A DNA stretch of 64,000 bases from a phage, in assembly GCA_018175075.1 (NCBI GenBank), contig GCA_018175075.1_4100.1, one strand, 5' to 3'. This document shows positions 27,400 to 28,137 of the stretch, in pieces. How positions within the stretch are numbered: the stretch's first letter is position 1; each line of letters starts with the position of its first letter. The notes under the pieces were generated by a model, which was not told the origin of the DNA, made no database searches, and saw only the letters and a program-made list of their open reading frames with translations. The position numbers and the translations under genes are program-made.

Positions 27400-28137
27400 T
27401 TAGACTGAATTGTTAGGATAATATCTCCCACGTCCCCATATTATTCGCACAGCACCACCACCAGCAGCCGTATAAGAAAAATTATCCCATATACTACCAC
27501 CACCACCATACATCTTACCAGCACCACCACTACCAGCACCACCATTATATGAACCATCGTATCTACCGCCAATACCATTAGCACCTTGAACAATGATACC
27601 AGTACCACCACCCGTACCAATGAACGAGGTATTATAGAATGCACCACCACCACCGCCGCCGCCAGCACCATTTTCACCAGTGATTGCATCTCCGTTACCA
27701 CCTTTACCAGTGTAGCCACCAGCACCACCACCAATGACTGCACCACCACTTACACCAGCGTTGCCCCCATTACCACCACCATCATTAATAGCGTTAGCAG
27801 CTTTCCCACCTAGTCCACCAACCCTATATTCACCAGTGAAGCTAACACATAGTTTTTCAGTTCCACGATATAAACCGTTTTCAACTGCTGTAGTAGTGTT
27901 GGGATGTGTAAGAGAAACACTTAAGTACTCACCACTAGTAACCGGAATATTATTACGCCACGATAAGCCGCCACCAGCACCACGTTGACCACCCGGCGAA
28001 ATAACACATACTGATATTTCGGTAACGCCAGCAGGAACTGTAAATTGTGTTGTTCCTATTGTCGTGATTAATTGTTCACCATGTGGCTTATATTCAATTT
28101 TATTCCCGTACTTAACCATTCTTCCAAAAGGTAACAT
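27400..28137 (-). CDS. glycine-rich protein with the family N-terminus, 245 aa
   Basis: MLPFGRMVKYGN followed by long GGxG-rich region ending GGGAVRIIWG. Confidence 0.65.
   Translation of the reverse strand: MLPFGRMVKYGNKIEYKPHGEQLITTIGTTQFTVPAGVTEISVCVISPGGQRGAGGGLSWRNNIPVTSGEYLSVSLTHPNTTTAVENGLYRGTEKLCVSFTGEYRVGGLGGKAANAINDGGGNGGNAGVSGGAVIGGGAGGYTGKGGNGDAITGENGAGGGGGGGAFYNTSFIGTGGGTGIIVQGANGIGGRYDGSYNGGAGSGGAGKMYGGGGSIWDNFSYTAAGGGAVRIIWGRGRYYPNNSV

Follow-up and report, generated by a model that had tools for sequence, protein, structure and literature searches.

A short N-terminal peptide shared by a glycine-rich protein and RCC1-like proteins of Rak2-like jumbo phages: a putative virion-docking tag

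The locus studied here raises a simple question: why does a gene for a glycine-rich protein, standing in a tandem array of RCC1-like genes of a jumbo phage, begin with the same few codons as its neighbors? A preliminary description, made from the sequence of a 64,000-nucleotide stretch of phage DNA (hereafter, the window), took the common MLPF peptide for a portable anchoring or targeting module joined to unrelated bodies. We followed this peptide through related genomes, characterized the glycine-rich body, and weighed the explanations that could account for both. The reading we favor, with moderate confidence, is that the gene product is a small accessory protein of the virion, composed of a docking tag and a brush-like binding body, that belongs to a plug-in repertoire. 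Databases already contain the gene and its domain family, and structures have been solved for relatives with this fold. For the tag itself, its conservation at the protein level, its association with at least five folds, and its restriction to Rak2-like phages, we found no prior description in the searchable literature.

The glycine-rich gene and its tandem array

The open reading frame (ORF) reported in the preliminary description is real: it starts with ATG on the minus strand and encodes 245 residues followed by a stop codon (Table 1), and the plus-strand frame over the same interval contains many stops. The product begins with MLPFGRMVKYGN (read further, MLPFGRMVKYGNKIEYKPHGEQ) and ends with GGGAVRIIWGRGRYYPNNSV (...AAGGGAVRIIWGRGRYYPNNSV). 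Glycine accounts for 28.6% of its residues overall and for 41.9% of residues 100–228. The window comes from an Asteriusvirus, a ~350-kb ‘Rak2-like’ jumbo coliphage similar to 121Q and phAPEC6. By tblastn, the 245-residue product is 99.6% identical to 121Q gp243 (CDS 243 in NC_025447, labelled ‘hypothetical protein’) and to its orthologs in SP27, UB, JP4, and phAPEC6; the DNA around the gene matches these Asteriusvirus genomes at 92–98%. The Asteriusvirus orthologs are 94–100% identical to one another, with no obvious hypervariable patch. In another frame inside the gene lies a valine-rich ORF of 102 residues (27441..27749, minus strand), and it is this wrong-frame ORF, gp004, that was annotated in phAPEC6 in place of the true glycine-rich gene, an annotation error corrected here. 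The glycine-rich protein was therefore missing from the phAPEC6 proteome search.

The array comprises ten intact, one truncated, and one frameshifted RCC1-like gene in addition to the glycine-rich target. These 12 other ORFs, all on the minus strand, open with MLPF[AGVP]R[MLI], and 11 of the 12 have Y[GA]N at positions 10–12. All 12 carry RCC1-like beta-propeller domains (PF25390/PF00415; phrog_4219), and each of the five neighbors scanned has such a match; the target gave no RCC1 or WD40_RLD match and is thus not a member of the RCC1 (phrog_4219) family. In a BLASTP comparison of the target with an RCC1 neighbor, the alignment was confined to residues 1–26 (E = 8e-6): the first 12 positions are identical or conservative in 12 of 12 cases, and the similarity is weak beyond them, up to residue 26. 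The shared N-terminus seen in the preliminary description is borne out by this alignment and by the 12 MLPF-headed neighbors. Gene content of the array differs among the window, 121Q, and phAPEC6.

Table 1. Coordinates and basis of the features discussed, in window positions.
Feature	Position	Strand	Basis or remark
Tandem array of 13 MLPF-headed genes	20097..34289	-	ORF list, domain scans
Frameshift-split last RCC1-like paralog	20097..21249	-	74-aa head + 298-aa body
Truncated RCC1 paralog, 269 aa	25336..26145	-	Same length in 121Q gp238 and phAPEC6 gp007
Hairpin + T-run, 5 nt past stop codon	27372..27394	-	Terminator of target gene
Target gene, 245 aa	27400..28137	-	ORF list; tblastn; NC_025447 CDS 243
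Glycine-rich ‘brush’ body, residues ~18–245	27403..28086	-	Predicted TNF-like beta-sandwich + polyglycine-II (PPII) bundle
N-terminal tag MLPFGRMVKYGN, codons 1–12	28102..28137	-	Shared with RCC1-like paralogs
Shine-Dalgarno AAAGGAGGG, 4 nt before ATG	28142..28150	-	Sequence; precedes other array genes too
Promoter-like box TAAATATATTATAAT, consensus TAAATATAGTATAAT	28155..28169	-	Conserved; putative promoter
GC-rich hairpin AAAAGCCAGTACAGAGTACTGGCTTTT + T-run	28181..28207	-	Terminator of upstream paralog; cassette 5' edge

Two members of the array deserve a separate mention. The truncated paralog corresponds to phAPEC6 gp007, which has the best virion coverage among the array proteins (17.5%). 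In the split paralog, the 74-residue head starts with MLPFGRIITSSK, a degenerate form of the tag; since 121Q gp235/gp234 are annotated with the same split, this frameshift is either an ancient lesion that has been kept or a programmed one.

The plus strand carries a second, divergent tandem array at 34374..38765. It consists of ~20 small paralogs of 59–75 residues arranged head to tail, most of which start M(N)xxKEFY and end L(I)xLIxxY, and it is broken by a 219-residue ORF at 36211..36870; in 121Q, it corresponds to gp249–265, all annotated as hypothetical. Beyond it, 38800..64000 contains very few ORFs of at least 100 residues and zero tRNA genes, and the 121Q counterpart (gp266–303) holds dozens of genes for 45–120 residues with no function annotated.

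Conservation and distribution of the tag

Eight array genes, including the target, are preceded by one cassette: a hairpin with a T-run, the box TAAATATAGTATAAT, AAAGGAGG, and ATG. In the window, the box is found in eight copies at 0–1 mismatch, all preceding array genes, with 12 matches in total against 3.3 expected. A terminator scan returned 17 sites against 5.4 ± 2.5 expected, the repeated hairpin having the form GCCAGTAC-N3-7-GTACTGGC followed by a T-run. Sigma-70 promoters, by scan, are not enriched in the array (67 vs. 72 expected); the array-specific box alone is. The intergenic GCCAGTAC..GTACTGGC hairpins of 21296..33097 are palindromic, with T-runs on either side, and the terminator scan picks them up on both strands; they may terminate in both directions or be sites of recombination. 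Over ~75 nt upstream plus codons 1–12, the DNA of the target is 78–92% identical to that of its neighbors (mean 82%), equal to the 78–92% found in this block for the RCC1 genes among themselves; past codon 12, identity between target and neighbors drops to a background of 0.50–0.64 (~60%). Because the tag sits in this conserved DNA cassette, concerted evolution contributes to its similarity within Asteriusvirus. An 81%-identical ortholog on a metagenomic contig of 26.7 kb (P0002) starts with MNKGGNKIEYKP and carries no tag. Its start is precisely that expected from a 37-nt deletion between the GGGAAT of the ribosome-binding site (RBS) and the GGGAAT of codons 11–12 (28100..28160 in the window); the tag may be missing in nature, or the sequence may have been misassembled.

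This arrangement recalls the PeSL promoter–terminator cassettes, known as agents of gene shuffling among T4-type phages (PMC2839356, PMC4122927): in both, a stem-loop terminator and a promoter are repeated between small variable genes subject to gain, loss, and replacement. The array cassette is unlike PeSL in that its conserved unit reaches beyond the start codon and takes in a conserved peptide; its promoter is putative, and recombination is suggested by the strain differences and the one deletion variant. By this analogy, the shared N-terminus might be the by-product of a mobile regulatory cassette, its first 12 codons dragged along by recombination or gene conversion and the peptide itself functionless. 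The block that runs from the hairpin to codon 12 and ends abruptly, the PeSL precedent, the differing array content of strains, and the apparent loss of the tag by deletion between GGGAAT repeats are all in keeping with this explanation. Three observations made on related genomes and on codon usage speak against it.

First, the residues of the tag are constant while its codons vary synonymously. We compared the codons of 30 tagged genes from four genera, among them Asteriusvirus, Mimasvirus (CBB, GAP32), and Eneladusvirus (Serratia phage BF), defining the tag as M-L-P-F-x-[RIP]-[MLIV]-x-x-Y-[GA]-N or MLPFPIIS at a true start codon with its own RBS. The target fits this definition, with MLPFGRMVKYGN at its start and AAAGGAGGG 4 nt upstream. 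Across the 30 genes, P3 is encoded by CCT (13), CCA (13), CCC (2), and CCG (2); Y10 by TAT (12) and TAC (13); G11 by three codons, and R6 and F4 by two each. The first four codons are almost fixed as ATG TTA CCN TTT.

Second, the tag persists next to unrelated DNA. Besides its glycine-rich ortholog gp144, Pectobacterium phage CBB has nine further genes that start with MLPF[SPAT][RI]xxxY[GA]N, and these tagged paralogs keep the peptide despite sharing no common upstream cassette, the DNA ahead of them being unrelated.

Third, the tag persists outside an array. CBB gp144 is 38% identical to the target and stands alone between nrdD and nrdG, without RCC1 neighbors, and it still starts with MLPFSPLIVYGNKI (MLPF..YGNKI). 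M1, P3, and F4 are invariant in all nine glycine-rich orthologs compared, down to this level of identity; the CMSTMSU ortholog, which contains a stop codon and comes from an ‘unverified’ record, was excluded from the comparison. A similarity confined to the DNA level at a recombination junction, which the preliminary description had itself raised against its own reading, is thus rejected on account of the synonymous codons, the upstream DNA in CBB, and gp144. The tag is conserved at the protein level and not as a DNA junction alone: a purely DNA-level explanation is largely excluded, and a functionless by-product of the cassette appears very improbable.

The form of the tag varies among phages. 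In Serratia phage BF, MLPFPIIS[NH]T heads the RCC1 genes as well as two glycine-rich genes of one array, so the variant tracks phage lineage and not body type, a fourth ground for regarding the peptide as more than a DNA junction. Intermediates between the variants exist in this comparison, for instance MLPFPIMNKYGN. Lineage-wise variants of this kind would be expected if the tagged proteins had a common partner, and local concerted evolution would give the same pattern. The two tagged glycine-rich paralogs of phage BF (L014) lie at 3338..4180 and 5397..6191, in one array.

The tag is also portable. By Pfam assignment, the bodies behind it include RCC1, Kelch, an RCC1+Kelch fusion, Laminin_G_3 (a ConA-like lectin fold), and Gly_rich_2, along with several bodies that have no family. 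The ten CBB genes with MLPFxxxxxY[GA]N alone bring together Kelch, LamG, unassigned, and glycine-rich bodies, and together with the RCC1 and glycine-rich bodies of phage BF they uphold the portability proposed for the MLPF peptide in the preliminary description.

The distribution of the tag is restricted. A search of 2.9 million viral contigs with the DNA pattern ATGTTACCNTTT-N15-TAYGGNAAT found 14 stretches on nine contigs, every one of which is 348–378 kb long. Similarly, tblastn with the 22-residue peptide matched Rak2-like jumbo phages only, plus one weak Xanthomonas match; the hosts represented are Escherichia, Salmonella, Erwinia, Yersinia, Serratia, Cronobacter, Pectobacterium, and Klebsiella aerogenes, and this peptide search did not match RaK2 or K64-1. 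In 121Q, the first 150 kb contains zero MLPF starts outside the array, and in the other 200 kb, where the tag was sought by the exact DNA pattern and by peptide tblastn only, none was found outside the array.

Among distant homologs on phage-sized contigs (P0005–P0036), many stand-alone glycine-rich proteins start with MLELL, MIELL, or MLEML and not with MLPF. We considered MLELL/MIELL/MFEMM as a second shared tag and dropped it after a scan of 58 kb of Salmonella phage PVP-SE1 (~40% of the genome) revealed none of these starts on any other ORF.

Family and fold of the glycine-rich body

Direct domain searches with the target returned nothing: it matched zero families of Pfam (hmmscan, even at E <= 1; PF21722 included) or of NCBIfam, and a profile search of PDB sequences was likewise empty. 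For PF21722, the failed scan may reflect the composition filters of HMMER acting on a 29%-glycine protein and is not proof of non-homology. Indeed, phmmer found 194 relatives, many with a precomputed PF21722 (Gly_rich_2) assignment (P0038 at E = 1.5e-16), and PF21722, with no other family, was found in 28 of 84 aligned homologs. These matches establish, by significant sequence homology, that the body is related to PF21722 proteins. The target also matches phrog_4474 at E = 2.5e-69.

With a profile of the family, 7163 representative proteins were collected, and 2135 reached E <= 1e-30. In these relatives, the glycine-rich domain spans profile positions ~10–20 to 255–259 and occurs either alone, in proteins of ~250 residues, or in one to several copies in proteins of up to 5500 residues. 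Because the match starts at ~10–20, the tag falls outside the domain. The body ends in a family-wide AVRIIWGxGRxxP strand.

An AF2 model of the target, built from the family alignment, has an overall pLDDT of 94.2 and a pTM of 0.90. The predicted fold, the one expected for PF21722, combines a TNF-like beta-sandwich with glycine-rich extended (PPII) strands that project from it as a bundle. Its best matches among solved structures are the exposed, receptor-binding tip of the Pam3 tail fiber, the tail-tip decoration of Bxb1, and the extracellular ligand-binding domain of ALK; matches in BFVD include ‘glycine-rich domain-containing’, tail-fiber, baseplate, and giant-virus collagen-like proteins. 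The body is thus unlike those of the RCC1 paralogs and resembles phage fiber domains, in line with what had been suspected from its composition. In the same model, confidence falls at the N-terminus, with a pLDDT of 55 for residues 1–10 and 78 for residues 11–20. Similarly, the RCC1 paralog at 26154..27329 is modeled (pTM 0.82) as a propeller from about residue 20 onward, with the tag residues 1–12 below a pLDDT of 50 (45 for residues 1–10). Structure prediction, which the preliminary description had suggested as a check, hence returns a brush fold for the target and leaves the tag outside both folds. As weak evidence from modeling, this is consistent with the tag being an unpacked N-terminal tail, as would be expected of a linear motif that becomes structured upon binding to its partner.

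The solved relatives offer several points of comparison. Pam3 gp24 (PDB 7YPX) has the same TNF-like and glycine-rich fold as the target body at 16% identity, and differs at the N-terminus: it docks via a long alpha-helical trimerization domain and needs the chaperone gp25, whereas the target has a 12-residue peptide and no chaperone gene evident beside it. Bxb1 gp33, the ‘tail wing brush’ (PDB 9D93), shares the fold too; its phage is a siphovirus with an actinobacterial host, and the protein lacks both the MLPF tag and a paralog array. As a decoration, gp33 is dispensable, and gp30 holds it in place (PMC12646305). The glycine-rich domain of ALK/LTK (PDB 7LIR, 7LRZ) is a close known system in that the ligand-binding domain of ALK has the fold of the target body, and the polyglycine adhesin gp38 of phage S16 also counts among the closest. 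The literature views ‘brush’ domains of polyglycine as antireceptors (PMC13243795, PMC13243192), and receptor or ligand binding by distal loops has been proposed for Pam3 gp24 and S16 gp38.

Virion association and a putative docking function

Published mass spectrometry (MS) places several tagged proteins in phage particles. The glycine-rich ortholog CBB_144 was identified in CBB particles with five unique peptides and 34% coverage (PMC5259590), and most tagged CBB genes are annotated as encoding structural proteins. Six RCC1 paralogs of phAPEC6 (gp003, 005, 006, 007, 009, and 010) are part of its structural proteome, with 1–4 peptides each (PMC7247149), so that few copies may be present. MS also identified GAP32_001, and JP4_577, 581, and 582 appear in the virion table of JP4. 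The Asteriusvirus glycine-rich protein itself has not been detected in virions; it is absent from this 49-protein LC-MS/MS table, though it is annotated in JP4. Two features of these particles await an assignment in the literature: the hair-like fibers on tail and capsid, decorations seen in 121Q, phAPEC6, and CBB, and, in phAPEC6, an inner-body rod.

For the rod, the authors of the phAPEC6 study proposed RCC1-like proteins, and this invites comparison with the capsid-targeting sequence (CTS) of phage T4. The internal proteins IPII and IPIII of T4 share a ~10-residue N-terminal targeting sequence that takes foreign proteins into the head (PMC9958956). The likeness to the MLPF tag is plain: both are N-terminal peptides of about this length common to differing, non-essential virion proteins, and the T4 CTS is sufficient to deliver cargo to the particle (PMC9958956). 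If the tag worked in the same way, the array proteins would enter the prohead core or inner body and perhaps be ejected with the DNA, which would suit low-abundance virion components headed by a short, unstructured N-terminal peptide. The two elements have zero sequence similarity, however, and the parallel is one of analogy only. The prohead protease removes the T4 CTS, whose target is the scaffolding core, whereas the MLPF tag has no conserved cleavage motif behind it: the residues after N12 read, for instance, IAPEAP, IVPVPL, IKPAPS, or KIEYKP, positions 13–25 are variable, and many paralogs lack Glu there. For a Rak2-like protease, whose site preferences may differ, this is a weak test. 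Moreover, the tagged bodies are surface-type binding folds, lectin-like or receptor-binding, with the glycine-rich body closest to the exposed structures of Pam3, Bxb1, and ALK. Because of the lacking cleavage site and the nature of these folds, we rate internal targeting, the main rival, below docking on the virion and give it a small, if appreciable, probability. As to its putative function, we would class the MLPF tag with the short elements that address or anchor accessory virion proteins from their N-terminus.

The tag could instead act before assembly or away from the virion, as a signal recognized by a phage chaperone or by a modifying enzyme, as a signal for export, or as an enhancer of translation initiation, with the bodies themselves conferring virion association. 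The near-fixed ATG TTA CCN TTT would fit a constraint on the 5' end of the mRNA, and the glycine-rich fiber tips of Pam3 require dedicated chaperones. Against this, Y10, G11, and N12 are conserved while synonymous sites are free, a single folding chaperone for five unrelated folds is unlikely, the tag has no hydrophobic stretch like that of a signal peptide, and the tagged proteins are found by MS in particles. We consider the probability of such a role low.

Docking on the virion, the reading we prefer, can be rationalized as follows. Residues 1–12 (MLPFGRMVKYGN) would be a short linear tag that stands at the head of all genes in a rapidly evolving array of Rak2-like jumbo phages and most likely docks all array proteins at one common virion site. 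This site is probably external, among the capsid and tail decorations (‘hairs’), as argued solely from the nature of the folds. Residues ~18–245, folded into a TNF-like beta-sandwich with a projecting polyglycine-II bundle, would most likely bind the host surface. One address tag would thereby serve unrelated binders, namely RCC1 and Kelch propellers, LamG lectin folds, and the glycine brush. With unrelated binding modules placed under one common tag and docking site, the array would work as a plug-in repertoire. In Asteriusvirus, the terminator–promoter–RBS–tag cassette makes every gene boundary homologous over ~110 nt, and this may allow bodies to be gained, lost, and exchanged by recombination. 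In its most general form, in which MLPFxRMxxYGN is a universal ~12-residue docking tag of Rak2-like phages that brings exchangeable binders into one receptacle, possibly the ‘hairs’, the proposal is a tentative one, and we hold it to be somewhat less likely than its negation.

A role in DNA condensation has been suggested in the literature for the 10–15 ‘chromosome condensation regulator’ genes of 121Q, phAPEC6, and CBB, from the RCC1 name alone. The shared tag, the finds in virions, and the fiber-tip type of body suggest a particle-borne binding repertoire rather than DNA condensation. If docking by the tag is true, plug-and-display would occur naturally in these phages, and proteins of any kind could be loaded onto jumbo-phage virions by means of the tag; were it sufficient for incorporation, it would offer a display handle and a route to the docking protein and to the composition of the hairs. 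A tagged protein with more than one propeller exists as well: in an uncultivated relative (L015), the gene at 6413..8416 encodes 667 residues in which RCC1-like and Kelch propellers are fused.
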